From: an uncultured Clostridia bacterium
Lineage (GTDB): Bacteria > Bacillota > Clostridia > TANB77 > CAG-508
Length of the DNA stretch: 64,000 nucleotides
Direction: 5' to 3'
NCBI GenBank assembly: GCA_947573445.1
Contig: CANPFR010000006.1
Span: forward strand, 14,560-78,559
Shown one piece after another: positions 243-43,200 of this stretch. Within the stretch, counting starts at the first letter, position 1, and each line of letters begins with the position of its first letter. Made by a program: the position numbers and the translations under genes. The notes beneath the pieces are model-generated. The model was not told where the DNA came from. It ran no database searches and worked only from the letters and a program-made list of their open reading frames with translations.

Positions 243-1679
243 ATGAAAGTTTTAAGAAAAACAAAAATAGTAGGTACCATAGGACCAGCTAGTGAAAAAA
301 AATTAGAAACATTATTTGACACAGGATTAAATGTTTGTCGAATTAACTATTCTCATGGAAGTTATGATGAGCAACAAGAAAAAACAGAAGAAATTATTCG
401 TTTGAGAAAAGAATTAGATTTACCAATTGCAATGCTTCTTGATATGCAAGGTCCAGAAATCAGAACAGGAATGCTCGTAACTGGAAAAAATGAAAAAATC
501 CAATTAGAAGATGGCCAAAAATTCACCCTTGTATGTGGGGAAGATATTGTGGGTGATAAAACACAAGTTTCTGTATCTTATAAGGATTTATATAAAGATT
601 TAAAAGCAGGGGCAAAAGTTTTAATTGATGATGGAGCTATTGAACTAGTAGTAGACGCAATCAATGGAACCAATATTGAATGTACCGTAGTTCATGGAAA
701 TGGCTTAGGCAGTAGAAAAACAATGAATTTACCTGGTACAGCCATTCGTTTGCCAGCATTAAAACAAAAAGATATTGATGATTTAAAAACAGCTTGTGAC
801 CATGACTATGATTTTGTTGCAATTTCTTTTTGCAGAAATGTGGATGATATCAACCAAGTTAGAAAAGTATTAGATGAAAATGGTGGAACAGATATCAAAA
901 TCGTAACAAAAGTAGAAAATGTTGAAGGTTTAAGCAATATGGAAGAAATCGTAGAAAAAGCTGATGTCCAAATGATTGCACGTGGTGATATGGCAACAGA
1001 AACTGATTTTACAGAGCCACCAATCATGCAAAAGAAATTTATTAAGTTATGTAACAAAGCTAATAAATCAGCTATTACAGCAACACAAATGTTAGAATCG
1101 ATGACACATCAACCATTACCAACGAGAGCAGAAGCAAGTGATGTGGCTAATGCTGTATATGATCGAACAAGTGCTTTAATGCTTTCTGGTGAATGTGCGA
1201 TGGGAGAATATCCAGTAGAATGTGTGGCAACAATGGATAAAATTTCAAGAAGAATTGAAGGAACAATTGATTACTGGAAAAAATTTGAAGAAAACACAGA
1301 TATCAATTTAAAAGATTTAGAAGATAATATTGCTTATTCTGTTTGTGTGATTGCTAAAAATATGAAAGCAGATGCGATTGTTTGTTATACAAATTCAGGA
1401 GATACTGCTAGAAGATTAGCAGGTATGGGAGCTGGTTGCCCAATTTTAGCAATTACAGATAATAGAAGAACGTTTAATCAATTGGGAATTGTATGGAATG
1501 TTTTCCCAGTTTTAGTAGAAGGAAATGATGATAAAACAAAAGTAATCAAAGCAGGAATTGAAAAGTTGAAAGCCAAAGAAATTTTAGAAACAGGAGATTC
1601 TGTGATTGTTGCTGGAGGAAAAGACTTTATGGATGGCGTATCTGCAAGTAAACAAATTGGCGGATATGTAAAAATTTAA
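243..1679 (+). CDS. pyk: pyruvate kinase
   Basis: N-terminal MKVLRKTKIVGTIGPAS...MLDTKGPEIRTG-like motifs typical of pyruvate kinase across ~480 aa. ATG at 243 follows RBS AGGGAG. The ORF-track start at 198 is a GTG without an RBS. Confidence 0.9.
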   Translation: MKVLRKTKIVGTIGPASEKKLETLFDTGLNVCRINYSHGSYDEQQEKTEEIIRLRKELDLPIAMLLDMQGPEIRTGMLVTGKNEKIQLEDGQKFTLVCGEDIVGDKTQVSVSYKDLYKDLKAGAKVLIDDGAIELVVDAINGTNIECTVVHGNGLGSRKTMNLPGTAIRLPALKQKDIDDLKTACDHDYDFVAISFCRNVDDINQVRKVLDENGGTDIKIVTKVENVEGLSNMEEIVEKADVQMIARGDMATETDFTEPPIMQKKFIKLCNKANKSAITATQMLESMTHQPLPTRAEASDVANAVYDRTSALMLSGECAMGEYPVECVATMDKISRRIEGTIDYWKKFEENTDINLKDLEDNIAYSVCVIAKNMKADAIVCYTNSGDTARRLAGMGAGCPILAITDNRRTFNQLGIVWNVFPVLVEGNDDKTKVIKAGIEKLKAKEILETGDSVIVAGGKDFMDGVSASKQIGGYVKI

Positions 1680-8861: not shown

Positions 8862-9564
8862 TTGGTTAGGAGTGTTTTGAAAATGTCAATTTTTATCATT
8901 AAAATAATAGCTTGCATAACAATGGTATTGGATCATATTAAATATGCTATTCCGGAAACTCACTGTTTTGCAACTCAATATTTGGGCAGAATCGCTTTTC
9001 CGTTGTTCGCTTTTTTAGTGCGGGGAAGGTTACAGCCATACCAGTAATTTAAAAAAATATGCTAAAAGATTAATGGTATTTGCCATTTTCTCACAAGTAC
9101 CATTCATGTTATTTCGAACTCTTGTTGGAGAATGGCGTATGCTCAATATTTTATGGACTTTATTGTTGGGATTATTGGCTATTGTAGTATGGGATAAATT
9201 GGGAAAAAGGTATGATTGCTCAATTCCATTGGTTATTCTAATTTGTTTGCTTGGAAAATATCTGCAAGTAGATTATGGTTGGTATGGTGTTTTGTGTGTG
9301 TTTGTCTTATATTTATTCCGTGAAAAAGGAATGCTTAGAATTGTGGCATTCAGTATTTTGAACGGAATTTATTATTATCCAAGATTATTAACAGATGATT
9401 CGACAAGTAGTTTGGTTTCCTACATTTGTGCAACTATTCCAGCTGTTTTGTTGCTTTTTTACAATGGGAAATTAGGAAGAAAAACCAAATATTGGTATTA
9501 TCTCTTTTATCCAATTCATATGATTCTATTTTATGGAATCTATAGAGTAATCTATTTGTTGTAG
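8862..9564 (+). pseudogene. TraX family membrane protein, interrupted by +1 frame break near 9021
   Basis: The N-terminal part (ACITMVLDHIKY...AFPLFAFLV) continues in the +1 frame as EGYSHTSNLKKYAKRLMVFAI..., typical of TraX proteins. The break lies within 9019-9047 and contains CGGGG. Confidence 0.6.
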
Positions 9565-9635
9565 AAATAAAAAAATACTTGAGAAATTTTAAAGAATGTG
9601 TTAAGATGAAAAGGAATAGTGAAAAGGAGGAAAAA

Positions 9636-12032
9636 ATGAAAATTAAAAACCAAATTAAAATCACACTTATTTTTATTATGTTAATATTATTTCCAATATT
9701 AGCATTTGCGGAAGAAGAATTCGTTTTACCGCAATACACAGAGGAATACAAACAATGGCTAGCATTGCCAGAAGAAGAAAAGCAAAAATGCATGGAACCA
9801 CAAGCGTATGAAACGATAGATGATTCTTCTGAAAATGTAACATTTTCAGAAGATAGGAATTTGAATGCATCAGCATCTAATTTGCCTTCTAGTTATCAAC
9901 GAAATGATTATGGAAGTGTAAAAGATCAAGGCGGTTCAAATGCTTGTTGGGCTTATTCAGCAGCTACGATGTTTGATACGAATTATGCTGTTACGAATCA
10001 AGCAACACGCAAAATATTTTCCAATCTACATATGGATTATATGACTTCCTACCAATACAATCAAAATGGATTTAATCGAAGAGTTGATTCAGGGGGGAAT
10101 ATTCAAATTGCATTAGCTTATGCTACCAATGGTATGGGAATTGCTTTAGAATCAGAAATGCCATTTAAAATTGATGCAACAACAATGGCAAGTGTGCCAA
10201 TTCAAGCAAAAGTTAATGATTATATTGAATTATCTGGCCAGTCTCAAATGAAAGATTATCTTTATCGATATGGTGTTATTTCGGCGTTTACTTATAGTGG
10301 AGGAAGTGCTTTTTATTCTGTTTCTTCTGCTTCGGATTTGTTTAATAATCCCAATTTAGCGTATTGCTGTGATCAAAATATTACAGCCAATCATGCAGTA
10401 ACTTTAGTTGGCTGGAATGACAATTATACCAATGCTAGTTTTCCAAATAAAAAAGGTGCTTATCTTGCCTTAAATTCATATGGTGCCAATTTTGGAAATA
10501 ATGGTCTATATTACATTTTCTATGATGATATTTTTGTTAATTCTAAAACTTATGCAGCTACCAATACAAGCGATATTAAATATGATTATCTGTATCAACA
10601 CGATCCTTATGGTTCTACTGCTCATGCAGGTTATACAACTGGAACTTATGCTGCTAATGTATTTACCAAAAAAGATACAAAATATACGGAAACGATAACA
10701 GAAATAAGTTCTTATTTTCCAACTGCTGGGGAAATAACGATTTATATTAATGCAAATGGAGCTGATGTCAAAACAAGTAGTGCAACTAAAACAGTGAAAA
10801 CAACAATTACAAAGCCAGGGTATCATACCATCCAATTAAAAGAAGCAGTTCAAGTAAAAGGGGAAAAATTTGCTGTTGGTATTCGATATCCAGATTATAT
10901 GTCAGTTGAGCTTCCAACGCCAAGTGGTTGGTGTTCAACGATAACTTCAAGTTTAGGCGAAAGTTACATATCAAAAGATGGTGAACATTATTTTGATGCC
11001 CAACAAGCTTATACACAATACAAATATGCAAATGCTTGTATCAAAGCATTTACGAAAAAAGGTGAACCAATCAAAACAGAACCACCAAAAGAGAATTTAC
11101 CAGTTTCAGGTTATCATGATGATTTGATAAACTATGTATTTGATTCTCAATATTATGCAGATCATAACCCAGATTTATATATTGCCTATGGTTACAACGA
11201 ATCAGCCCTAAGAAATCACTGGAATACTTATGGAATTGCAGAAGGAAGACCTGCTTCACCAGTGTGGGATCCCAATTATTATGTTTCACAAAATTTGGAT
11301 TTAGCCAAAGCGTTTGGACGTGATTATATTGCATTGTACAATCATTTTATGAATTATGGTTATGCAGAATATAGAAAAAGTTCACTAGAATATGATGCGA
11401 GATATTATAGAAGTCACAATAATGATTTAAAAAATATGTCTTCCATGGAATTGATTAGACATTATTCTATTTTTGGAAAAAATGAATTAAGAAGAGCAAG
11501 CCAAAAATATGATATAACTAGGTATTTATTTGATCCACAGGTATATGCTACTTGTAATCCAGATGTTCGAAATGCGTTTGGTAACAATGAATATTTACTA
11601 AAGAAACACTGGTATGAGTTTGGAATCAGGGAAGGAAGAATTGCTAGTTTCTTATTTGATGCGAGATATTATTTAAGAAATAATAAGGATTTAGTAAATG
11701 CCTTTTCACAAACTAATTATACAGCAGCATATTACCATTTTATTGAATATGGATTTACGGAGCAAAGACAAGGAAATGCTTTATTTTCTACGACCTATTA
11801 TTTGGCTCAAAATACAGATTTGAGAAAAGCTTTTGGTGAAAATTGTTTAAAAGGTGTTAATCATTTTTATCACTTTGGAAGAAGAGAGAGAAGAAGAACA
11901 GCTCAGCGTTTTAATGTAATTGCTTATCGTTCCAAAAACAAGGATTTACAAAATGCTTTTGGTGGAAATTATGAGCAATATTGGATGCATTATTTGCAAT
12001 ATGGTCAATATGAAAATAGAATTTGTTTATAA
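9636..12032 (+). CDS. secreted papain-like (C1) cysteine peptidase with C-terminal ~36-aa repeat module
   Basis: Signal peptide MKIKNQIKITLIFIMLILFPILAFA. Catalytic Cys context QGGSNACWAYSAAT, giving the C1 peptidase assignment, with the active His inferred near NHAVTLVGW. About eight C-terminal repeats of Y..N.DL..AFG.N...L..H....G..EGR are shared with the 13288 gene. Confidence 0.75.
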   Translation: MKIKNQIKITLIFIMLILFPILAFAEEEFVLPQYTEEYKQWLALPEEEKQKCMEPQAYETIDDSSENVTFSEDRNLNASASNLPSSYQRNDYGSVKDQGGSNACWAYSAATMFDTNYAVTNQATRKIFSNLHMDYMTSYQYNQNGFNRRVDSGGNIQIALAYATNGMGIALESEMPFKIDATTMASVPIQAKVNDYIELSGQSQMKDYLYRYGVISAFTYSGGSAFYSVSSASDLFNNPNLAYCCDQNITANHAVTLVGWNDNYTNASFPNKKGAYLALNSYGANFGNNGLYYIFYDDIFVNSKTYAATNTSDIKYDYLYQHDPYGSTAHAGYTTGTYAANVFTKKDTKYTETITEISSYFPTAGEITIYINANGADVKTSSATKTVKTTITKPGYHTIQLKEAVQVKGEKFAVGIRYPDYMSVELPTPSGWCSTITSSLGESYISKDGEHYFDAQQAYTQYKYANACIKAFTKKGEPIKTEPPKENLPVSGYHDDLINYVFDSQYYADHNPDLYIAYGYNESALRNHWNTYGIAEGRPASPVWDPNYYVSQNLDLAKAFGRDYIALYNHFMNYGYAEYRKSSLEYDARYYRSHNNDLKNMSSMELIRHYSIFGKNELRRASQKYDITRYLFDPQVYATCNPDVRNAFGNNEYLLKKHWYEFGIREGRIASFLFDARYYLRNNKDLVNAFSQTNYTAAYYHFIEYGFTEQRQGNALFSTTYYLAQNTDLRKAFGENCLKGVNHFYHFGRRERRRTAQRFNVIAYRSKNKDLQNAFGGNYEQYWMHYLQYGQYENRICL

Positions 12033-12047
12033 ACAGGAGCTAAGAAA

Positions 12048-12719
12048 ATGCAAGCTTTAAAGGTGTTTTATGAAGATAATCATGTGATTGTTGTAGAAAA
12101 GCCGAATAATGTACCATCACAAGCGGATAAAACGGGTGATGAGGATATGTTAACAAAAATCAAAGAATATATGAAAGAAAAGTATCATAAGCCAGGAAAT
12201 GTGTATCTTGGTTTGGTTCACCGTTTGGATAGACCAACTGGTGGGATTATGGTATTTGCCAAAACGTCTAAAGCAGCGGCTAGATTGAGTGAGCAAATCC
12301 GCAATAAACAAGTACAGAAAAAATATTTAGCGATGTGTGATGGAAAACCAGAAAAAGCAAAGGATACTTGGTGCGATTTTTTGCTGAAGACAGAAAGAAC
12401 CAATACAAGTAGAGTGGTTCCAGAAGGAACCAAAAATGCGAAAGAAGCAATTTTGGATTATGAAATTCTAGCATATAAGGAAAAAACGAATTTATCGGTT
12501 GTAAAAGTAAATTTACGAACAGGTAGACATCATCAAATAAGAGTTCAATTTGCTTCCAGAGGCTATAGTTTGTATGGTGACCAAAAATATGGAGTCCGTG
12601 GAAGAGGAAAGCAATTAAGACTTTGGGCGTATTATTTAAGTTTTTATCATCCAATCACAAAAGAGAAAATGGAATTTGAAGAGATTCCAGAAATGTTTTT
12701 GCAGAAAAAATTGTCATAA
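12048..12719 (+). CDS. RluA-family pseudouridine synthase
   Basis: HRLDRPTGGIMVFAKT is the RluA catalytic motif. Size 223 aa. Confidence 0.85.
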   Translation: MQALKVFYEDNHVIVVEKPNNVPSQADKTGDEDMLTKIKEYMKEKYHKPGNVYLGLVHRLDRPTGGIMVFAKTSKAAARLSEQIRNKQVQKKYLAMCDGKPEKAKDTWCDFLLKTERTNTSRVVPEGTKNAKEAILDYEILAYKEKTNLSVVKVNLRTGRHHQIRVQFASRGYSLYGDQKYGVRGRGKQLRLWAYYLSFYHPITKEKMEFEEIPEMFLQKKLS

Positions 12720-12775
12720 ATTTTTGACTTTGGCATATATATTAATAAAAGCATCAAATGTAAAGGAGGAAATTT

Positions 12776-12889
12776 ATGAAAAAATTTTTAATTGGAATGA
12801 TTCTAATTGGGACAATCCTAAGCGTTGGATTTTTCATTGGCTTATTATACAATTTTGTTATGCTATTACAAACGCTAAGTGGAGGATGA
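12776..12889 (+). CDS. small hydrophobic peptide (37 aa)
   Basis: Not in the ORF track, which omits ORFs under 60 aa. Near-perfect RBS AAAGGAGGA 7 nt upstream of the ATG. Encodes MKKFLIGMILIGTILSVGFFIGLLYNFVMLLQTLSGG. Confidence 0.35.
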   Translation: MKKFLIGMILIGTILSVGFFIGLLYNFVMLLQTLSGG

Positions 12890-13287
12890 AAGGGAGAAAT
12901 CCCTCTTACATAAAAATCAATTCCAATTTTCTTGACATTTTTTGCGAAATTTATTAAAATAAAAATAGAAGAGAAAAAGGCAATTTGCAGAAGTGGAACT
13001 CTACTTTTGTAAATTGACTTTTTTACATTTTTTGATGAAAAATGACTAAAAAACAAAATAAAACGCTATAAACGACATTTAATTATGTTTTAGAGGCATA
13101 AAATCGAAGGGTATGAGAAAAAAGAGAAGACAAAAGAAGAAGGGGGGAAGCAAGGAATAAGAAGATAATTAAATGATTGCTAAAACAAATTACAAAAGTA
13201 GTGTAATTAAAAATATGCGGATTAAAAAAACTTTACAAAGTAAAAAGTAAATGATATAATAAAACCAAAAAAAGGAGGATATTTTTT

Positions 13288-15075
13288 ATGAAAGTACAAA
13301 AAAAGATTTTATTTTTGTTTTTTTTACTTCTGATGGTGTTTTCAGCAAAATGTTTTGCTGTTTCAGAAGGTGAGAAAATTGTTTGCCATGATGTAACAAC
13401 AACTATGCCACAAGTTAGCCAATCTTCTAGCGAAGAGGAAGATCCACTTTATCTCAAATTTTCGAATATGCCATCTGTTAGTACAAGTGCATCAGGGGAT
13501 CGTATAAGCAGTTTGATTGCAACCTATCAAAATGAGACAACAGCAGTTGGAATTGATGTTTCTCGTTTTCAAGGGGACATTAATTGGAAAGCAGTTGCCG
13601 ATTCAGGCGTTAAATTTGCGATAATTCGATGTGCCTATCGAGGTTATGCAGCGGAAGGAAATATTGCCATCGATCCTAAATTTGAAGCGAATATAAGAGG
13701 GGCATTGGAAAATGGAATTTATGTTGGTGTTTACTTTTTTTCAACAGCACTTAATGAAGCAGAAGCACTTCAAGAAGCTGCAGTTACGCTTGATTTAATA
13801 CAAGGTTATGATGTGAAATTTCCAATTGCTTACGATTTTGAGTATTTTAACGATGTACCCAATTATCGAACCAATGGTTTGTCAAAAGAGCAGTTAAATG
13901 CCAATGCCAAAGTATTTTTGGATTATATTAATAGTAGAGGTTACCAATCGTCTCTTTATGGTAGTACTAATTATTTAAATAACACATGGAGTCCTGCTTT
14001 ACGTTCTTCGTACGATGTTTGGGTGGCTCATTATTATGTTGATAAACCAACTTATGGTGGTCAATATGCGATGTGGCAATGTACAGATAGAGGAAGTGTA
14101 CCAGGTATTAGTACAGTAGTGGATGTGGATATTGATTATCAATATTATCGTTCGTTTAATAATACGAATGTAGCAGCATGTTTGTTTAATGCAACCTATT
14201 ATGCGGATCGTTATTCCGATTTAAAAGCGGCTTATGGTTACAATGCATCCGCTTTGGAAAGTCATTATGAAACATTTGGAAAACGAGAAGGACGTAGTGC
14301 TTCACCAGCGTTTGATCCAGTGTATTATGTGAATCAATATACGGATTTGAAACAAGCTTTTCGAACTGATTACAGGGCGGCATTTAACCATTTTGTAAGT
14401 TATGGAATTTATGAAGGAAGGCAAGGAAGTAAATATTTTTCAGCAACCGATTATTTAAACTATCATGGAGATGTGAAAAAAGCTTATTATGGTAGTAGAA
14501 CAGGGGCTTTGTTCCATTTTTGGCATTTTGGTATTTCAGAAGGAAGACAAGGGAGCAGTCAATTTCGTGTAAAGAATTATTACAATTCACAAAGTAGTTA
14601 CACAAAAAAGAAATTAGGGACAGAATACATAAAATATTATGCTTTAGCAGAAGGTGGACAACCAATTCATGACCCAGCGATTGATATTACTAATTATTTA
14701 TTTGATGCAAATTATTATGTGAGTCAATATGAGGATTTAAAACAAGTTTTTGGCAATCATGTAGCAGCTTTAAAAGAGCATTATGAAACATTTGGAAAAC
14801 GAGAAGGACGTAGTGCCAGTCCAGTATTTGATCCAGTGTATTATGTGAATCAATACACAGATTTGAAACAAGCTTTTCAAACCGATTATGTGGCAGCATT
14901 TAATCATTTTGTAAATTATGGAATTCATGAAGGAAGAAAAGCAAGCAGTCAATTTAATGTTCAAAAGTATATTAGTTATTACAGTGATTTACAAGCAGAA
15001 TTTGGACCAAATCTTTCAAAAGCGTTAGAGCATTATATATTATTTGGAAGAAAAGAAGGTAGAAAGTCAGTTTAG
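13288..15075 (+). CDS. secreted GH25 muramidase (lysozyme) with C-terminal ~36-aa repeat module
   Basis: Signal peptide. GIDVSRFQGDINWKAVADSGVKFAIIRCAYRG is the GH25 catalytic-domain opening. The C-terminal repeats are the same family as in the 9636 gene. Confidence 0.8.
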   Translation: MKVQKKILFLFFLLLMVFSAKCFAVSEGEKIVCHDVTTTMPQVSQSSSEEEDPLYLKFSNMPSVSTSASGDRISSLIATYQNETTAVGIDVSRFQGDINWKAVADSGVKFAIIRCAYRGYAAEGNIAIDPKFEANIRGALENGIYVGVYFFSTALNEAEALQEAAVTLDLIQGYDVKFPIAYDFEYFNDVPNYRTNGLSKEQLNANAKVFLDYINSRGYQSSLYGSTNYLNNTWSPALRSSYDVWVAHYYVDKPTYGGQYAMWQCTDRGSVPGISTVVDVDIDYQYYRSFNNTNVAACLFNATYYADRYSDLKAAYGYNASALESHYETFGKREGRSASPAFDPVYYVNQYTDLKQAFRTDYRAAFNHFVSYGIYEGRQGSKYFSATDYLNYHGDVKKAYYGSRTGALFHFWHFGISEGRQGSSQFRVKNYYNSQSSYTKKKLGTEYIKYYALAEGGQPIHDPAIDITNYLFDANYYVSQYEDLKQVFGNHVAALKEHYETFGKREGRSASPVFDPVYYVNQYTDLKQAFQTDYVAAFNHFVNYGIHEGRKASSQFNVQKYISYYSDLQAEFGPNLSKALEHYILFGRKEGRKSV

Positions 15076-21428: not shown

Positions 21429-24152
21429 TTGAAAAAGCTTCAAAACGATGAACTACAAGAAAGTCTTGACTTTTTGGGATTAGATTTAGACAAGGTGCCA
21501 AAGTTTATAAAAGATGCAACAATTCCAAGTTTTAATACATCAAGATTGAATAATGACAAAGATTTAAAAGTTTATAAGTTTGTTCCAATTAGTGAAATAG
21601 AAATCTTAATTACTCCTTGTTTAAGAAGTGATGACATGCATAAAAAAATGGCAGAAGCCTTGCCATTAAAGTGCTTTTTGAATATAGATGGAGATGAAGA
21701 TGAAATTGCGATGTTCAAAACATTTTCTAAAATTCTAAGAAATACCCCAAAAGAGGAAGTCGAAAAAATTGAACAAATGCAAGAGAGTTTTGGGGGAAAA
21801 GTACCATTTAAAGTTAAGTACAATCGTGATCACTTATGGCAGATTTATTATTCGGAAGAGTCAGAAAAATATTTTATGTTGGTTTGCACAAAAGAGCAGA
21901 TTTTTGCGGAATTCTTGTATTTGCTGAAGTGTCAAGTGGAGTTGAGTAAAAAGAAAAGCAAGATATCGCCTAAAATTTATGTTCCCATTAATTATATGGG
22001 ATATAGTGAACAGATTTTAGAGAAAAATGAAATTTCAGATATTGAAAATTATTTATGGTTGTTTACTAAAAATTGGCCATTAATATTTGAAGTGTATAAT
22101 GAGAAAAATGAGGTTTCTTTACATGTTGTAGGAGAAACATTTGTATATCGTAATATCAAGAGTAGTTATAAAATGATTTTGGATTCAACAGAAGAGGCGA
22201 TCAAATTTTATAAATTGTTAAAAGCATTGTTTATTTTACAAACAGAAATCAAAGGTCAATATACATTTGAGACGCGAATTGATAGTAGTGATGGATTAAG
22301 TATGTATTTGTCAAAAGTGGAAATTACATTTAATAGTTTGACTAACTTTATCAAAAATGAGTTTTTACTAGCGGATTATGAAATTAAAAAGCAGAATAAG
22401 GAAATGATAGAGCTCCAAAAAAGTTTGACCCAACTAAAAGAACAAGTCAAGGAAAAAGAAGAAGAATATTTGCAAAAGCAAAAAGAAATTTCGACTTATT
22501 TAGAATGTAAAAAAACTTTTATTGGAAAAGTGAAATATTTCTTCAAGTCTAATAAAAAAAGTAGTAAGCCGACCAAAATTCAAGTTGCAAAGGAAAATCA
22601 AGAACAATTGCTACAAGAGCTTGATGCAGAACCGATCAAAAATTTGATTGAGGAAAAAGAATATTATACAATAGAAGATTTGGTTACAATTTATACGTTA
22701 CATGAAAAAGGTGAAAAAAATTATAAAAATTTAAAACAAGATAGGAAAGCATTGGAATTGAAATTGGAAAATATTACATCAAAGGTACGCAATGCAAACC
22801 AATACATAGAACAAATTGACAAACACAAAAGGAGCATTTTTGATTTTTGGAAATTTGCTAATAAAGATGAAAAATTGGCTTTAGAAATGGCAGATGACAA
22901 AGAAAACGAAAACGAACAAAAAGCACAAAAAAAATCATTTGATTTTGAAATGGATTTTGAAAAATTGGGGGAAGACGTAGACCATTTGCAAAGAAAGAAA
23001 TTGTCTAATGAAGAAAATGACAGTTTATTTATTGCCCAAACAGAATTGTTGCATTATGTTAATATGGTGCGTTTGAACAAAATTGTAAAATATGATTTAG
23101 AAGATGTACTTTATGAACTAAAAGAGGAGTTCAATGAAGATCGCTTGGTGATTGCCAGTGAAACATTTGATATTTTTGGGAACATATCAGAAAATAATCA
23201 AAAAGTAAAATACATTGGAAGTCGAAGCCATAGGGAAAGTGAAAAAAGTAAATTTAAGATTATGAATATTAATCAAAAAATTGATGTTTTTGATTTCACT
23301 GAAAAAATGCAAAGTATAGTTAATTTTCTAGAAGGTGCAATTCCTAAAATTACCGCTACTTATGATATGCCACTTTACAAATTGGTACCAATTTCCAGAA
23401 ATATCGAACAAGATGAATTTGAACTCTATAATATTAGTGTAGAAGATGAATTGCAAAATTACGAAGAAAATGGAGAAGGAGCCTATAATTTAATTTGTTT
23501 AAATTATAAAGAAGGAATGCCACTTCTGTATTATACAAATGCTATGTTTTATGATAATTTAAATAAAACTTTACCAATTGGCATGAATTTATGTTCTAAA
23601 GTGTTAATTGATAATAAAAGGTTAGAATTTGTACTAGTTAACAAAACAAAATTCAGAACTAATTCGTATTTTAACAAAGAAGCAGATAGTAATCCAAAAT
23701 CAAAAGATATTTTTGTATATGAATATGATGTATTTCTAAAAGATGAATCAGCAGGAAATACAAGAAATGAGCTATTATCAGCAAGTGAACCCCATGTTCC
23801 AGAAAATGCATTGGAAGTTCAATTAGAACAGGAAGAAAATGCATTTATGAATACAATGGAAGAAGTTAGCAGTTTTGAAGAAGAAACAATGGAAGAAGAG
23901 ATTTTGGAAAACATAGAAGCAATTGAAACACTAGAGGAAATGTCACCAGAAAGGAAAGAGGAAATCAGTTCAGAAATCTTAGTGCAAGAAACATTTGCAA
24001 AAATGCAGGAAGACAAACAAGAAGAAATAGGTGTTAATCAATCCAAAAAGCTCTTAAAGATTCAACAAAAATTGGAAAAAGAATTAGAAAAACAAAAGAA
24101 GAAAGAAGAAAAAATCAAGCAAAAATTAGAAAAGAAGAGTAAAAGAAGATAA
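21429..24152 (+). CDS. hypothetical 907-aa protein with central coiled-coil and Lys/Glu-rich C-terminus
   Basis: TTG start after RBS GGGGAGGAAAG. Long ORF with charged low-complexity tail (KQKLEKELEKQKKKEEKIKQKLEKKSKRR). No recognisable catalytic motif. Confidence 0.4.
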   Translation: MKKLQNDELQESLDFLGLDLDKVPKFIKDATIPSFNTSRLNNDKDLKVYKFVPISEIEILITPCLRSDDMHKKMAEALPLKCFLNIDGDEDEIAMFKTFSKILRNTPKEEVEKIEQMQESFGGKVPFKVKYNRDHLWQIYYSEESEKYFMLVCTKEQIFAEFLYLLKCQVELSKKKSKISPKIYVPINYMGYSEQILEKNEISDIENYLWLFTKNWPLIFEVYNEKNEVSLHVVGETFVYRNIKSSYKMILDSTEEAIKFYKLLKALFILQTEIKGQYTFETRIDSSDGLSMYLSKVEITFNSLTNFIKNEFLLADYEIKKQNKEMIELQKSLTQLKEQVKEKEEEYLQKQKEISTYLECKKTFIGKVKYFFKSNKKSSKPTKIQVAKENQEQLLQELDAEPIKNLIEEKEYYTIEDLVTIYTLHEKGEKNYKNLKQDRKALELKLENITSKVRNANQYIEQIDKHKRSIFDFWKFANKDEKLALEMADDKENENEQKAQKKSFDFEMDFEKLGEDVDHLQRKKLSNEENDSLFIAQTELLHYVNMVRLNKIVKYDLEDVLYELKEEFNEDRLVIASETFDIFGNISENNQKVKYIGSRSHRESEKSKFKIMNINQKIDVFDFTEKMQSIVNFLEGAIPKITATYDMPLYKLVPISRNIEQDEFELYNISVEDELQNYEENGEGAYNLICLNYKEGMPLLYYTNAMFYDNLNKTLPIGMNLCSKVLIDNKRLEFVLVNKTKFRTNSYFNKEADSNPKSKDIFVYEYDVFLKDESAGNTRNELLSASEPHVPENALEVQLEQEENAFMNTMEEVSSFEEETMEEEILENIEAIETLEEMSPERKEEISSEILVQETFAKMQEDKQEEIGVNQSKKLLKIQQKLEKELEKQKKKEEKIKQKLEKKSKRR

Positions 24153-34263: not shown

Positions 34264-37200
34264 ATGAGAAAGAGAAATCCAGATAACATAGTTTCTAAGC
34301 CTACAAGAAGCCAGCATCGGCATAACATTAGCGGTTCTCATTATTACAATTATCATCATGTTAATTCTTGCAGGAGTAACAGCTTCGATTTTAATTAATA
34401 CGGGTCTTTTGAAAAATACAAAAGATGCGGTGCAATCTTATGAAAAATCAGAAGTAGAAGAAAAGTTAAGTGTAGCATTTGCAGCAGCATTTTCCAAGAG
34501 TGCTTTAAAAGGGGAAGATGTTACAGCTGAAAGTTTACAAGAAGAACTTGATAAAATCGGAATAGACGCAATTGTCTGGCCAGATGACGAAGATGAAAAT
34601 ATTTTACATATCCAAATTGGTGATAAAGACGGTGAATATACCGTTGACATCAATACAGGAACGATAACAGATGGCAAGAAAGATCCAGACAATCCAGAAC
34701 AGCCAACAGTAGATAATAAAGCACCAGTTATTACATTAGCAAGTAATCGAAACACAAATTGGTCACAAACAGCTAGTGTAAATGTATCAATTGTTGATAG
34801 TGGAAGTGGACTAGCCACAGGGGCAAGCATCAAATATGGATGGAGTACAAGTGCAACAACAGCACCAACAGATTATCAAATAGCTGATATCAGTACTTAT
34901 TCAGAAGGAAGTAAAAATGCATCTTTTACAGCTACTTCAGCTGGATTAACAGGAAAATATTATTTGTGGGTTGTACCAGAAACCTTAAAAGACGTAGCAG
35001 GAAATAGTCAAAAAGAGAAAAGAATTTCAACAGGAACTTTTTACTTAGATAACACAAAACCAGTTGTAATATCAGTAACAACCACTTCAAGCGATATCAT
35101 ATTAAGTGCAACAGATGAAATTGGAATTACAGGATATGCTGTAACCACAACCAATACAGCACCAGATTTAGCACAAACAGGAGGTATCGAAGGGAAAGAT
35201 GGTGTAGATAAATGGATTAGTTGTAGTAGTGTAACAGCCATTAATAATAAAAAATTAACTGGCTATGAACAAGGGACAACCTATTATGTATGGACACGAG
35301 ATGCAGCAGGAAATATTAGTTCAAGTAAGAGTGGTGAAACAGGAACTGGCACTATTACGAAACCGACAGAAGAAGATTTGAAATATACGGTAACATGGTC
35401 TAACACAGAACCAAAAGCAACTGTAAGCTTTACAACAACATCAGAATTCACAATTCAAATTAGTACAGATGGTGGGGCAACCTGGAAACAATATGAAAAT
35501 GATGCAATAACAGTAAATTCAGGAGAAGCAATTTATGTAAAATACGCAAAAGACAATACACATGGTGATCAATACATTGTTATAACACCAATCTTAGAAT
35601 ATACAATTGTTTATAATGGTAATGGGGAAACAACAGGAAGTACAGAAAATAGCTTACATCGTTACAATGAGGAAAAAGTATTAACCAGAAATGGATATAG
35701 TAAAACAGGTCATACATTCCAAAACTGGAACACAAAACAAGATGGAACAGGAATTTCTTATGAAGATGGTGCAAAAGTAAATAATTTAGCTCAAGTAAAT
35801 GGAGCAACGGTAACACTATATGCACAGTGGAAAGAAGTTCCAAATCCAAATACACCATATCGTGTAGAACATTATCAAATGGATTTGGATGGAAATTATC
35901 CAACCACGCCAACGGAAACAGAGAACAAGGCAGGAACTTCTAATACAGTAGCATCATCGAACAGTAAAAATTATACAGGCTTTACAGAAAATGAAGCAAA
36001 ACGAGAAAATGTAGGTGCTAACATTGCAGCAGATGGAAGTTTAGTAATTAAATATTATTATGCAAGAAACAAATATGAGTATACAGTTGAGACTGTAGAA
36101 GGTGTAACATCCACTGCTGAAAATACACCTTCTGGTACTTATTATTATGGAACAACTATAAAATTAAGAGCAACTTTAAATGATGGATATACATGGAGTA
36201 GTTGGGCCAGTAGCAATACCAGTTTGGTAGAAAATAAATCGCAAATTAATGCAAGCTTTACAATGCCAGCTGGAGCTATCACTATGACACCAAATGCCTC
36301 TCGAATGGAATACACAATAACGTATCATTTAGATGGAGGTACTTTGCCAGAAGGTAAAGAAAACCCAACTGTTTATACAGTTACTACTGCAGAAATTACT
36401 TTAACCAATCCAACCAGAAATGGCTATACATTTCTGGGTTGGACAGGAAGTAATGGACAAACGCCTCAAACAACAGTTAAAATTGCACCAGGAAGCACAG
36501 GAAACAGAACCTATACTGCCAATTGGCAGCCAGATAAACAAGCAATCAAAGTAGGGGATTTAGAGATTTATCAAGTCTATGGAGATGGGATTTATCGAGA
36601 TGAGGACTGCACAGAAAAAATGACAACAACTGAAAATCCAATCCAGCCATTACCAACTAAAGATGGGTATGAATTTGGTGGTTATTATACTGAAGAAAAC
36701 GGTGGCGGTACCCAAATGATTGATGAAAATGGCTATAAAACAACAGAATTTACCCCAACAACCAATCTTGAGAATTTGGAACTTTATCCACACTGGATTA
36801 AAAGAGGGGATGTAACCTACAAAATAGAACATTACAAAATGGGGACAAATGGAAGTTATCCAGAAAAAGCAACTGAAACGGAAAATCGTACAGGAACAAC
36901 AGGAGAAACTGCTGAATCAGCCCCAAAAACGTATGAAGGTTTTACAGAAAATGAAGCCAAAAGAGAGCAAGTAGGGGCTGCTATCATAGCAGATGGCAGT
37001 TTAGTGATTAAATATTATTACGAAAGAAATAAATATGATTTTATTTTACAAACACCTGATGAAGGTGCCCTAATAACAGGATGTTCAGCAACAGGTAAAT
37101 ATTATTATGAAGCAGATATTAACTTAGCCATAGCACCAGAAACAGGATACGAATTTACTGGTTGGATGAGTAGTAATCCTGATTTGGTGGGGCATATAAC

Positions 37201-40200
37201 TACTAATACAGGAACGTTCAAGATGCCAGCTGGGTCAATCACCATGACAGCGAAGATTGCACCAATTGAATATAAAATTGAATACGATTTGGCGGGTGGT
37301 AGTTTATCAGAAGGAGTAATCAATCCAACTAGTTATACTGTAACAACAACCGATATTTCGTTAAGCAATCCAATTAGACCAGGCTATACATTCCTTGGGT
37401 GGACAGGACATAATGGAGAAACACCAGAAACAACAGTTATTATTTCACAAGGAAGTACAGGAAATAGAAAATATATAGCTAATTGGCAAGCCAAAACTTA
37501 CCAAATTGAATATGATTTAGCAGGTGGAAGGTTACCAGAAGGAGTAACAAATCCAACAACTTATACAACAATAACAGGAGAAATTACATTAAATAATCCA
37601 ATCAAAACAGGTTATACCTTTTTAGGTTGGACAGGAAGCAATGGAACAGTACCAGAAACAACGGTTAAGATTTTGCCAGGAAGTACAGAGGATAGAAAAT
37701 ATACAGCCAACTGGCAAGCAGAAACATATGCAATAAAGGTAGGGGATTTAACAATCTATCAAATCTATGGAGAAGGGATTTATCGAGATGAAACATGTAC
37801 AGAAAAAATGACAACAACTGAAAATCCAATCGAAGTGCCAACCAGAGATGGTTATGAATTTGGTGGTTACTACACCGAAGAAAATGGCCAAGGTAGCCAA
37901 ATGATTAACGAAAATGGTTATAAAACAACAGAATTTACCCCAACAACTAACTTGGAAAATCTAGAGTTATATCCACACTGGATTAAAAGAGGAGATGTAA
38001 CTTATAAGGTAGAACATTACAAAATGGGATTAAATGGACTTTATCCAGAAACAGCAACAGAGACAGAAAATAAAACAGGAACCACAGGGGAAACAGCAAC
38101 TTCTACTCCAAAAGGATATGAAGGATTTACGGAAGATACAAGTCGTAGAGAACATGTTGATGAACCTATTATAGCAGATGGAAGTTTGGTGATTAAGTAT
38201 TATTATGAAAGAAATAAATACAAATTTACAGCAGAAAGTTCAGAAGGGGTAATAACGACCTCAACAACAGAAGATGGAACTTATTATTATCAAGCTGATA
38301 TCAACTTAAGTGCTGGAGCAGAAACAGGGTATCGTTTCACAGATTGGAGTAGTAGTAATCCAGATTTAGTACCGAATATCACAACTGCCAATACTACTTT
38401 TATGATGCCAGCTGGAGATATTACTATGACAGCAAATGCTTCAATTATAGAATATCAGATAACCTATGATTTAGTAGGTGGAACATTGACAAAAGAAAAC
38501 CCAGCCACATATAATGTTAAAACGAAAACGTTTACTTTAAATAATCCTACCAAACAAGGTTATCATTTCCTAGGTTGGACTCAAAATAAGGAAGAAGAAC
38601 CAACAGCTGAAGTCACTATTTCACAGGGAAGTACAGGTAACAAGACCTATACAGCAAACTGGGAAGTCATATCTTACGAAATTAAGTATGAGGGAATAGA
38701 GGGAGCTTCTTTCCCAAATGGAAATAATCCAACGAGTTATACGATAAATACAACAGATATTACCTTAAAAGCTCCAGCAAAACCAGGTTATCGATTTACT
38801 GGTTGGACAGGTAGCAATGGTACAACAGGACAAGTCAATGTAACCATTTCACAGGGAAGTACAGGTGACAAGACCTACACAGCCAACTGGGAAGAAGAAA
38901 CGTATAACATTAATTATGAGTTAAATGGAGGAACATTGCCAGATAATGCACCAAATGCTTATACTGTTACATCAGAAGAAATTATCTTACTTAATCCAAC
39001 CAAAGTGGGATACACTTTTACTGGTTGGACAGGTAGCAATGGTACGACCCCACAAGAAGAAGTAAGAATTTCACAAGGAAGCACAGGTCATAAAACATAC
39101 ACAGCTAATTGGCAAGTGAATGGATATACTTTTACATTAGGAAGTACAACAGGAGTATCAACCGAAGGAAGTACACGGCACAGGTACATATACTTATGGT
39201 ACACAAATTAATGTAAAAGCAACAGTAAGTCCAGGTTATACTTGGAATGAATGGGAAAGTAGTAATCCAGATAAAGTAGGAAATTCGCAAGATTTAGAGT
39301 ATACGTTTACCATGCCAGATTGTGCTATTACAATGGTGCCAAAGGTAATATCCAACCAATATACAATTACGTTAGACAACCAAGGGGCAACAACAGCAGG
39401 AACTGGTAAAATATATGAAAAATTCAATACAGGTATTTATTTAGACCAAGAAAATGCGAAAGAAATGACTGCTACAGAAAATGCAATCACAATACCAACG
39501 AGAGAAGGTTATACTTTTGGAGGATATTATACAGAAAAAGCTGGAGCAGGAATCCAGAGGATCAATGCTGATGGATATAAAGTAACAACCTTTTTACCAA
39601 CAGAATATACAGCAGATGCAACATTATTTGCACAATGGTTACCAGATGGAGCTACCAAATATAAAGTGGAACATTACCAAATGGATTTAAGTGGAGCTTA
39701 TCCAGAAACGGCAACAGAAACGGAAAATAAGACAGGAACTACAGGAGAGAAGGCTGAATCAGTAGCTAAAAGGTATCCAGGATTTAGTGAAGAAGAAGAA
39801 AGAAGAGAAAATGTAGGAGCAGAGATTTTAGCAGATGGAAGTTTGGTGATTAAATATTATTATGCAAGAAATCAATATCAATATATATTAGGAAATGCAG
39901 AAGGAATTAAAACAACAGAAGGAAGCTCAGAGTCAGGAAGTTACTATTATGGAGCAACGATTTCATTAAGTGCAATCGTGGATACTGGTTACAGATGGAG
40001 TAAATGGACCAGTAGTGATGTAACTTTACTACAAGATATTTTAACACCAACAGCTACTTTTACGATGCCAGCAGGCGATGTTACAATGACACCAACCGTT
40101 ACAGCGAATGAATATAGCTTTACTTTAGGGTCTGCTGTAGGGGTATCTACAAAAGATAGTTCGCAATCAGGAAATTATCCATATGGAGCAACGATTACAT

Positions 40201-43200
40201 TAAAAGCGACACCATTAGAAGGTTATACTTGGAAAGGATGGATTAGTAGTGATACTAATTTAACAGGAAATATAGAAACACAAGAGGCTACCTTTACAAT
40301 GCCAGCAGGCGATGTTACAATGACACCAACGGTACAAGGAAATGCCTATACGGTTAATTACTACAATGGAGAAGCAAGTTTAGGGTCTTCTGTTCATACC
40401 TATGGAACTACTCAGAATTTGAAAACTATAACAGAATTAAATGGAATGCAAGATGGATTTGAATTTTATGGATGGGCGATAGATGGTTCAACGACTAGAG
40501 CATATACAAATGGTGAAAGTGTTAATAATTTGGTAACAGAAGCAGAAGGAACTATCAATTTATATGCTATTTGGAAACGAGATGTAGTCTTTTATTCAGG
40601 AGCCAATGGAGCTAATCGAGAAACAGTAGCACAGTATTATAACCCAAAAGAGGCAACGTATTTGACAACTGCTCCAACAGCGATTTCAACGTTAGATGGC
40701 TGGCAAAGCTTAGGTTGGAGATCAGATGATGTGGCAGGTGACAAAGAAATAGAAACTGGAAAAACAACCAATTCAAATGCAACGGAATTTTATGCAGTTT
40801 ATAGTAGGGAAGCTAATTTCTATTCTGGAATTAATAAAGCAGTAGTACAAAAAGCGACGCAATATTATAGTGCAAGCAATCGATATCAAGTAGTAACACC
40901 AACGGAGCCAACAGAAATTGCTTCTTGGACGATAACAGGTTGGCGTGATGATACAACGGCAGGACAGTCAGAAATAGCAACAGGCTCTACAATTGATTCA
41001 AGTGTAAAGGAATTTTATGCAGTATATCAAAGAACATTGACAATTCAATATGATGCAAATGGAGGAGAAGGAGAGGTTCCAAACCAAGACAGTATACAAT
41101 ATTACAATACCAATGGAGCCATAACAAGCCCAGTTTTTGCTTTACGTACAAATCAATTTGCTTATACAGGCTATAACTTTGTTGCTTGGACAGAGGCACC
41201 TAATACAGGAACTCAATATTTGCCAAATGCAAACTTTACATTTGCAAATCCAGTGGGAACACAGAATACGAGTAAGACATTTTATGCAAAATGGAGTACA
41301 GGTGAATATGAGATAACTTATGTATTAAATGGAGGTGCTCTTCCACAAGGAGAAAACAACCCAAGCAAGTATAGTATAACATCGGATGATATTAGATTAA
41401 ATAATCCAGTAAAACAAGGATATACTTTCACTGGTTGGACAGGAAGCAATGGGGCAACACCACAAAAAGAGGTAGTCATTCCTCAAGGAAGTACAGGAAA
41501 TAAAACTTATACAGCAAATTGGGAAGCTAATGTTTATGAAATTACGTTAAATACCCAAGATGCAAAAGAGTCAGGTACAACACACTTATATGAGAAATAT
41601 GGAGAAGGTGTTTCTTTAACAGAAGATTGTGCTAAATTTGTGAGTACAATTACCATTCCAACCTATGATGGATATCGATTTGGAGGTTATTATTCAAAAC
41701 AAAACGGGGAAGGAACTCAAATGATTGATGCAACAGGAAAAATCACTTTTTCAGCAACAGCCTTTCTAGAAGATACTACCTTATTTGCTAATAAATTACC
41801 AGCAGATGGAATTGGTTATACAGTAGAACATTATTTAATGGATACAAATGGTAATTACCCAAATGAAGCGTCATATATAGAAGAAAAAACAGGAACAACT
41901 GGAGAGGTAGCAATTTCGAGTGCTCGACAAGACGAAGGATTTGAATTAGCAGAGAGTAATAATGTAGGAGCTAAAGTTTTGGGAGATGGAAGTTTAGTTA
42001 TTACATATAAGTATTCGAGAAATCAATATGAATATACACTACAGCCTGTAGTAGGAGTAGATACGAGTAAAGGAACACAGTCAGGAACGTATTATTATGG
42101 ACAAACGATAAATTTGAAGGCAATTGTAGAAAGTGGATATAGATGGAGTAATTGGACAAGTAATGATACAACATTAAACACATCTGAACAAGAAACCAGT
42201 TTTGTAATGCCAGCAAAAGATATTATTATGACGCCAAATATAATATTAACTTCGTATAATATAACTTATGATTTGACAGGAGGTCAGTTACCAGCAGGAA
42301 CGACAAATCCAAGTACTTATACAATAGTATCTAGTGAAATTACGCTAAAAAATCCTGTAAAAGAAGGATATACCTTCATAGGATGGACAGGATCAAATGG
42401 AACAGAACCGCAGACCACGGTTAGGATTCCAAAAGGTAGTACTGGAAGTAAGCAATATACAGCAAATTGGAGAGAAGTTACGTATAACATAGAATACGAC
42501 TTAGATGGAGGCCAATTGCCAAATGGAGTAACCAATCCAACATCATATACAATACAATCTGAAGCAATTACATTAAATAATCCAACTAAAACAGGTTATA
42601 CATTTATAGGATGGACAGGAGCAAATGGAATAGAACCACAGACTACTGTTACAATACAAAAAGGAAGTATGGGAGACAAAACTTATAAAGCTAATTATTT
42701 AGATGCTACTGCACCAACAATCACATTAGGAACAAATGGAAATACAACTTGGTCGAAAACAGCAAGTGTAACGGTAACATTAGCAGACAATATAAGTGGT
42801 TTGGCAACAGGTGCTGAAATACAATATGGATGGAGTCTAAGTAATGAAGAAGAACCTTCAACGTATACAACTGCTAATATAAATAGTTATTCATCAGGTG
42901 CCAAAAGTGCAACCTTTATAGCGACAGCTAGTGGCTTAACAGGAAAATATTATTTATGGATAAAACCAAAAATTTTAAAAGATGTTGTAGGAAATACACA
43001 AACCCAGTTACAGAAATCGACTTCAACTTTCTATTTTGATAATACACCTCCAGATGCAACATTTAGTACGAGTGATGGAAATTATATGATAGAGACAACT
43101 TCAAGTATAGCGTCAATTTCTACGAAAGTTACAGTAACTGATGCAGGAGGAAGTGGCGTATTGGCTAGTTCATTAGGATATGCATGGACTAATAGTAATA

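Follow-up and report, generated by a model that had tools for sequence, protein, structure and literature searches.

Short repeats or domains that terminate secreted wall hydrolases and lysins and bind wall polymers multivalently include the choline-binding repeats (CW_binding_1, PF01473), CWB2, SLH, LysM, SH3b, and ChW, and the choline-binding, CW_7, LysM, and SH3b modules hold other wall hydrolases on the wall. In the CW_7 repeats of Cpl-7, 42-residue three-helix units follow a GH25 domain and bind muropeptide, with a conserved Arg and Glu being involved (PMC5705596). Moreover, many unknown domains found paired with lysin catalytic domains in PhaLP 2.0 are probably uncharacterised wall-binding domains (PMC13237592). 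Here, we describe a 42-residue repeat forming the C-terminal third of two hydrolases, i.e., a C1 (papain-family) cysteine peptidase and a GH25 muramidase, both encoded within a 64-kb stretch of contig CANPFR010000006.1 (the whole of this stretch being referred to as the window) from an uncultured low-GC (32%) gut Clostridia bacterium. As far as sequence and structure comparisons go, this repeat forms a family of its own, of the same module type as CW_7, which is its closest functional analogue, and it has no existing annotation or structure. We consider it rather probable that, through multivalent binding of a repeating polymer, the arrays retain both enzymes on the wall of the producer.

Unit alignment and the register of the DNA set the repeat period at 42 amino acids (aa; 126 nucleotides, nt), with the consensus FDxxYYxxxNxDLKxAFGxNxxAxxxHxxxYGxxEGRxxSxx. 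The C1 peptidase carries seven units with E-values of 1e-6 to 6e-18 per unit in a hidden Markov model (HMM) search, the third of which (11391-11528) counts 46 aa, with a shortened loop between helix 2 and helix 3 and an added 8-aa tail. The GH25 muramidase carries six good units and a degenerate one, and both proteins terminate with their last repeat unit (Table 1). A preliminary description of this DNA had already placed a tandem repeat at the end of both hydrolases, at essentially the positions found here (11139-12029 for the C1 peptidase and 14185-15072 for the GH25 muramidase), and its consensus agrees with ours; its unit length of ~36 aa was wrong, as alignment, DNA register, and the spacing of units in relatives all yield 42 aa. 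Likewise borne out were its catalytic assignments, with Pfam matches to Peptidase_C1 (aa 112-315, E 1.4e-11) and Lectin_like (aa 338-492, E 3e-23) in the first open reading frame (ORF) and to Glyco_hydro_25 in the second, its placement of rluA as the sole gene in between, and its view that both hydrolases are secreted, each N-terminus bearing a Sec-type signal peptide as judged by inspection without a dedicated predictor. In the C1 peptidase, a basic n-region and a hydrophobic core precede an AFA cleavage-type motif (...LILFPILAFA↓EEE). The true start of this ORF is probably the ATG at 9636 (M20), since a 64%-identical homologue (P0245) aligns only from aa 38 onwards. The GH25 ORF contains motifs of catalytic type (i.e., GIDVS and AYDFEY), and a public protein (P0236) is identical to it.

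When the window was searched with a check HMM whose units came almost exclusively from other proteins, the two ORFs scored E=4e-95 and 5e-93 (with per-unit E-values of 1e-6 to 3e-20 across both), so that the repeat cannot be attributed to chance; no further ORF within the 64-kb window matched. Tandem Repeats Finder did not detect the array in the DNA, its copies being too diverged. Within the GH25 gene, a 249-nt stretch of block 1 recurs as the first two units of block 2 (14181-14429 vs. 14697-14945, 80% nt identity), and the first two C1 peptidase units share 62% identity with it. Unit by unit, the GH25 array shows 62% identity for r1/r4, 81% for r2/r5, and only 30% for r3/r6 (r6 having no special likeness to r3), and the comparison of GH25 with C1 units yields 57% for r1/r1, 50-55% for r2 with r2/r5, and 40% for last/last. 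These position-specific identities between both proteins indicate that whole arrays were copied, rather than single units.

The repeat regions of both window proteins gave no match to Pfam-A or NCBIfam at E<=1, the Pfam-A matches being confined to the catalytic and lectin-like domains. Specifically, the models for choline-binding (CW_binding_1), CWB2, SLH, LysM, SH3b, ChW, PG_binding_1, and SPOR did not match there, and neither did that for CW_7 (PF08230), which was also without a match among 74 strong homologues and 41 viral proteins; in these 115 relatives, no Pfam model matched the repeat region at E<=1e-3. PHROGs contained no model covering the repeat, a profile search of all PDB sequences reached at best E=0.59, and Foldseek found no analogue of the repeat models in the PDB, leaving unretrieved the Cpl-7 structures 4cvd and 5i8l that are present among the PDB sequences. 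Moreover, hhalign of a 140-unit profile against two authentic Cpl-7 repeats (from PDB 5i8l and 4cvd) returned a probability of 0.13%. Since Pfam model, profile comparison, and structure search were all negative, the repeat is kept apart from the CW_7 family, in line with the earlier remark that it is unlike the known wall-binding repeats. When the 42-column unit profile was used in a word-indexed protein search, four tiny proteins were all that came up, candidates seemingly being matched by length. A full-text search of the literature yielded no description of the repeat, which is a weak negative as the coverage of the literature is incomplete.

The preliminary description had also proposed a profile search for relatives. 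A profile of 42 positions, built from the window's 14 units and run against representatives of 50%-identity clusters, matched 19,150 cluster representatives at E<=1e-3 (9,208 at E<=1e-10 and 2,158 at E<=1e-30). Architectures were counted in 304 fetched members with repeat matches, which carry 1 to 19 units per protein (mode 8). In relatives, neighbouring units are dominantly spaced by 42 residues (473 of ~970 pairs) and secondarily by 60 residues. A Sec-type N-terminus was found in 211 of the 304 members by a simple heuristic, and the array was C-terminal in 204. Three subtypes are visible by unit length and context, i.e., one of 42 residues in Bacillota proteins, mostly at the C-terminus of proteins with a signal peptide; one of 40-41 residues in large RTX-like proteins of Alphaproteobacteria; and an N-terminal one of 38 residues in glycosyltransferases that lack a signal peptide (GT2, GT4, WsaF-like, and WbsX).

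A census of partner domains in the 74 top members revealed GH25 (12), YkuD (6), Amidase_3 (5), the Listeria-Bacteroides repeat (5), NlpC/P60 (3), CAP (3), transglutaminase-like (3), astacin (2), phage tail lysozyme (Phage_lysozyme2; 2), M23 (2), glucosaminidase (2), C1 peptidase (2), and an endolysin-like domain (1), and other searches added Amidase_2, polysaccharide deacetylase, SH3_3, ricin lectin, RHS, and phosphodiester glycosidase. Peptidoglycan-active partners overall comprise GH25, YkuD, Amidase_2, Amidase_3, NlpC/P60, M23, GH73, GH24, and VanY. Some members carry the repeat alongside SH3_3 or PG_binding_1, so that these modules are not interchangeable copies of each other.

The repeat also occurs in phages and prophages. 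A two-unit DNA motif with 126-nt spacing matched at least 120 IMG/VR contigs, and all fetched IMG/VR loci (134/134) encoded the repeat. Among 41 representative viral proteins, the usual form was a protein of 310-470 residues ending in exactly two units, behind catalytic domains such as Amidase_2 (7), phage lysozyme (4), glucosaminidase (3), Amidase_3 (2), tail lysozyme (2), GH25 (1), and VanY (1), and these two-unit catalytic proteins, GH24 and GH73 types among them, match PHROG endolysin families. Homologues of minor tail protein L account for 4 of the 41 and end in one to three units, which hints at a role of the repeat in adsorption to the host surface. The largest viral group (~67 loci) combines a signal peptide, a ~230-residue domain matched by neither Pfam nor PHROG models, and two C-terminal units. 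Since its gene lies between prophage integrase and repressor genes, the encoded protein looks like a lysogeny-expressed surface protein.

Shorter subtypes of the repeat are carried by GT2, GT4, WsaF, and WbsX glycosyltransferases that lack signal peptides and are apparently cytoplasmic. In a WsaF-like rhamnosyltransferase of Mesorhizobium (P0266), the 38-residue subtype is N-terminal and the surrounding locus is a polysaccharide (O-polysaccharide) cluster with rmlABCD and a Wzm/Wzt ABC transporter, in which a 313-aa protein upstream of P0266, without an assigned function, carries one further repeat unit. Foldseek against predicted viral structures (BFVD) moreover returned giant-virus matches at 26-40% identity, i.e., GT2/GT1 glycosyltransferases, an FkbM methyltransferase, and a dTDP-sugar reductase. 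The repeat is thus tied to enzymes making or cutting glycan polymers on both sides of the membrane.

A structure prediction of a three-repeat fragment, likewise proposed in the preliminary description, yielded confident three-helix units. The AlphaFold2 model of GH25 units r4-r6, based on a 76-row alignment, reached a predicted local distance difference test (pLDDT) score of 97.3 and a predicted template modelling (pTM) score of 0.88, with helices at about residues 3-9, 11-17, and 21-35 of each unit. This high pTM implies a fixed arrangement of consecutive units, which are predicted to form a rigid helical block rather than beads on a string. The model of the full GH25 array (aa 296-595, 300 residues) scored lower (pLDDT 89, pTM 0.53) and consists of two confident three-unit blocks with a disordered joint inside the degenerate unit, pLDDT being about 90-98 over block 1 and <50 for model residues 147-166. 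Over 2,021 units, Y6 and G32 are invariant and H27, R37, D12, and E35 reach 97-98%. Furthermore, D/N2, D12, and D/N20 lie at the start of the three helices or ahead of it, and G18 and G36 follow the second and third helix.

Taken together, wall tethering of the two window enzymes is the reading that we favour. The GH25 muramidase and the C1 peptidase would be exported via Sec, after which the array would bind a repeating polymer of the cell envelope, either peptidoglycan or a wall-linked glycopolymer, in a non-covalent and multivalent manner, and would so keep both enzymes on the producer's wall and concentrate them at their substrate. This is suggested by the features found in the family that characterise non-covalent wall-binding modules, i.e., exported carriers, many and unrelated peptidoglycan-active partner domains, a place at the C-terminus of endolysins, and a variable copy number, as well as by the tail proteins and by the lack of another anchor, neither window protein having an LPXTG sortase signal with membrane anchor or a match to any other known anchor domain. 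Several points weigh against wall tethering. Both the binding and the kind of ligand are inferred, and the AlphaFold2 output was read for secondary structure and confidence only. Part of the conservation is probably structural, because D/N2, D12, D/N20, G18, and G36 sit at helix ends, and these particular residues may be purely structural; the conservation pattern as such falls short of proving a binding site. In addition, the glycosyltransferase subtype resides in proteins without signal peptides, so that the superfamily is not confined to the cell surface, and the repeat was found in only one of 50,697 cultured-phage records.

The same observations bear on other explanations. A passive structural element, i.e., a rigid spacer or a scaffold for oligomerisation or protein-protein docking without any glycan or wall ligand, would agree with the confident rigid packing of the units (pTM 0.88), with the position of much of the conservation at helix caps and in the core, and with the very different cellular contexts, including cytoplasmic glycosyltransferases. 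Such a role nevertheless seems unlikely to us, as a mere spacer needs no near-invariant Y, H, E, and R, the partners overwhelmingly act on glycan polymers, and the two-unit, 84-residue tail at the extreme C-terminus of endolysins and tail proteins occupies a classic binding-domain position. It could also be that the 42-aa subtype of Bacillota binds host mucin, dietary glycans, or the walls of competitors, which would make the enzymes exoenzymes for adhesion, foraging, or attack instead of tethered autolysins; the source being a gut bacterium fits this, as do the non-wall partners (the C1 peptidase with its lectin-like domain, CAP, astacin, transglutaminase-like, ricin lectin, RHS, and anthrax-lethal-factor-like domains). 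However, phage endolysins and prophage proteins must recognise the envelope of their own host bacterium, and the partner census is dominated by peptidoglycan-active domains, which makes a non-self target improbable. That the repeat would be a diverged member of a described wall-binding family (CW_7, choline-binding, CWB2, SLH, LysM, SH3b, or ChW) is suggested by its superficial likeness to CW_7, with 42-residue three-helix units behind a GH25 domain (PMC5705596), yet we give this very little credence in view of the Pfam and NCBIfam searches (E<=1 in the window, and E<=1e-3 with Pfam in the 115 relatives), the hhalign comparison with the Cpl-7 repeats, and the failure of Foldseek to retrieve 4cvd or 5i8l.

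The suggestion in the preliminary description of a shared targeting module, possibly of a new family, is partly supported, in that the partners are those expected for wall targeting and no known model covers the repeat, but a reading as cell-wall anchoring alone proved too narrow. Indeed, a "cell-wall anchoring domain" cannot describe the whole family, because the repeat is also found on apparently cytoplasmic glycosyltransferases and giant-virus sugar enzymes, and these fusions would make the binding of glycan polymers in general, rather than of the wall, the ancestral property. As judged from these architectures, glycan-polymer-binding repeat would be the better-fitting name for the superfamily, and the module is reused by wall hydrolases, phage endolysins, tail proteins, RTX exoproteins, and polysaccharide-building glycosyltransferases. 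More tentatively, and with considerable doubt on our side, the superfamily might constitute a new-fold helical glycan binder, shared by bacteria, phages, and giant viruses and serving on either side of the membrane, with which polymerising glycosyltransferases hold the growing chain, hydrolases and endolysins find their substrate, and tails adsorb, the conserved Y/D/H/E/R residues forming one putative sugar/phosphate site per unit.

The features of the two repeat-bearing genes and of selected relatives are listed in Table 1. The rluA gene begins 16 nt past the stop codon of the C1 peptidase gene, and the promoter-like site lies 28 nt upstream of the GH25 start codon.

Table 1. Coordinates of the repeat-bearing genes, their arrays, and neighbouring elements in the window, and of repeat-bearing proteins elsewhere.
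Feature	Position	Strand	Basis
C1 (papain-family) cysteine peptidase gene, secreted; lectin-like domain and 7 C-terminal repeat units	9579-12032	+	ORF
Predicted Sec signal peptide of C1 peptidase (MKIKNQIKITLIFIMLILFPILAFA)	9636-9710	+	Read from sequence
C1 peptidase repeat array, 7 units	aa 521-817, 11139-12029	+	Unit alignment, HMM, 126-nt DNA register
C1 units	11139-11264, 11265-11390, 11391-11528, 11529-11654, 11655-11783, 11784-11909, 11910-12029	+	
RluA-family pseudouridine synthase (PF00849)	12048-12719	+	PseudoU_synth_2, E 3.4e-34
Terminator-like hairpin 3' of rluA	12981-13016	+	Consensus scan only
Promoter-like site (TTTACA, 17-nt spacer, TATAAT with TG extension)	13232-13260	+	Consensus scan only, 11/12 matches
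GH25 muramidase gene, secreted, C-terminal repeat array	13288-15075	+	ORF
Predicted signal peptide of GH25 muramidase	aa 1-24, 13288-13359	+	By inspection, ...MVFSAKCFA↓VSE
Glyco_hydro_25 domain	aa 89-274, 13552-14109	+	Pfam, E 1.1e-33
GH25 good units	aa 300-425, 472-595	+	
GH25 repeat block 1, r1-r3 (14185-14310, 14311-14436, 14437-14562)	14185-14562	+	Unit alignment, HMM
GH25 degenerate unit and flexible linker (FRVKNYYNSQSSYTKKKLGTEYIKYYALAEGGQPIHDPAIDITNYL)	aa 426-471, 14563-14700	+	Weak alignment to units
GH25 repeat block 2, r4-r6 (14701-14826, 14827-14952, 14953-15072)	14701-15072	+	Unit alignment, HMM
Mesorhizobium WsaF-like rhamnosyltransferase locus with 38-residue subtype	L215 7054-10712		
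Phage minor tail protein L homologues with repeat (Phage_tail_L, phrog_18)	L186 6256-7344, L083 8573-9559, L136 6090-7067		
Protein of the largest viral group	L109 2285-3382	-	Similar ORFs in L133, L125, L185, L168
Giant-virus repeat proteins (Hyperionvirus, Fadolivirus, Harvfovirus)	BFVD G9E5K5, A0A3G5AB74, A0A3G5A882, A0A3G5AAF2, A0A3G5A8D1, others		

The neighbours of both genes are housekeeping genes (tsf, truA, gpr, ytxC, traX, rluA, recU, and a two-component system), on which ground a prophage origin of the two genes was rejected. Sortase anchoring of the window proteins was rejected as well, their sole LPxSG string lying in the linker before the repeats and lacking a membrane tail. The EF-Ts encoded in the window is 77-78% identical to that of uncultured gut Clostridia metagenome-assembled genomes (e.g., Candidatus Scatovivens), which gives a rough placement of the source only, and both the repeat and the shared gene order were absent from all 80 related tsf loci compared; a genome scan with the GH25 protein as query found no relative. 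Just upstream of the C1 peptidase gene, a TraX-family ORF (9073-9564) covers only positions 64-216 of the 217-position model, so that it may lack part of its N-terminus or have a wrongly assigned start. A 907-aa ORF (21429-24152) that lies downstream of the two-component system had no Pfam match at E<=1e-4. Two adjacent giant ORFs (34358-39211 and 39312-49484; 1617 and 3390 aa) contain many Listeria-Bacteroides repeats (Flg_new and Flg_new_2), have neither an LPXTG motif nor a copy of the 42-residue repeat, and presumably encode large surface proteins with another anchoring mode. Finally, uvrA is apparently split at 50035-52864 into a 614-aa ORF, in which the domain scan located the UvrA interaction and DNA-binding domains, and an overlapping 370-aa ORF that follows in another frame; this suggests a frameshift or sequencing error near 51750-51880.

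At a minimum, the repeat merits a domain-family entry, since thousands of proteins are now annotated as though their C-terminal third were empty. It spans gut Clostridia, the phages of these bacteria, O-polysaccharide synthases, and giant viruses, all without any annotation. Should binding hold true, the repeat would be a major unannotated wall- or glycan-targeting module, found in at least 19,150 clusters of proteins (50% identity), and would account for the surface retention of many secreted enzymes of gut Clostridia. It would also give a name to some of the metagenomic endolysins in the large "[catalytic]-[unknown]" class, and provide a compact 84-residue targeting unit for the engineering of lysins against hard-to-culture gut anaerobes. 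The fusions to O-polysaccharide and giant-virus glycosyltransferases would then point to a common means of holding glycan chains during synthesis.

Armadillo-type helical solenoids are built from repeats of about 42 residues with three helices per unit. The present repeat shares this unit length and helix count, which we take as a lead only, as no test supported kinship: neither an armadillo nor any other solenoid protein was among the Foldseek results from the PDB, and the armadillo models of Pfam gave no match. With the choline-binding repeats, CWB2, SLH, LysM, SH3b, and ChW, the repeat has in common that it is the same kind of module, and it differs from them in matching none of their Pfam models and in being predicted all-helical, whereas the majority of those folds are mainly or entirely beta. 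Among the metagenomic endolysins described in PhaLP 2.0 is a "[catalytic domain]-[unknown domain]" class, into which the repeat-bearing endolysins from IMG/VR fit; the repeat itself is not defined there (PMC13237592), and its consensus, predicted fold, and distribution are given here. The closest parallel is CW_7 of the pneumococcal phage lysozyme Cpl-7 (PF08230; 4cvd and 5i8l), which likewise consists of tandem 42-residue three-helix units C-terminal to a GH25 domain, varies in copy number, and is fused to Amidase_2 and other lysins. The two are without a sequence relationship by Pfam and hhalign and without a structural link by Foldseek. They also differ in build: in CW_7, each unit is a bundle of its own, with linkers of 6 residues in between, whereas the units described here are contiguous and predicted to form a rigid block.

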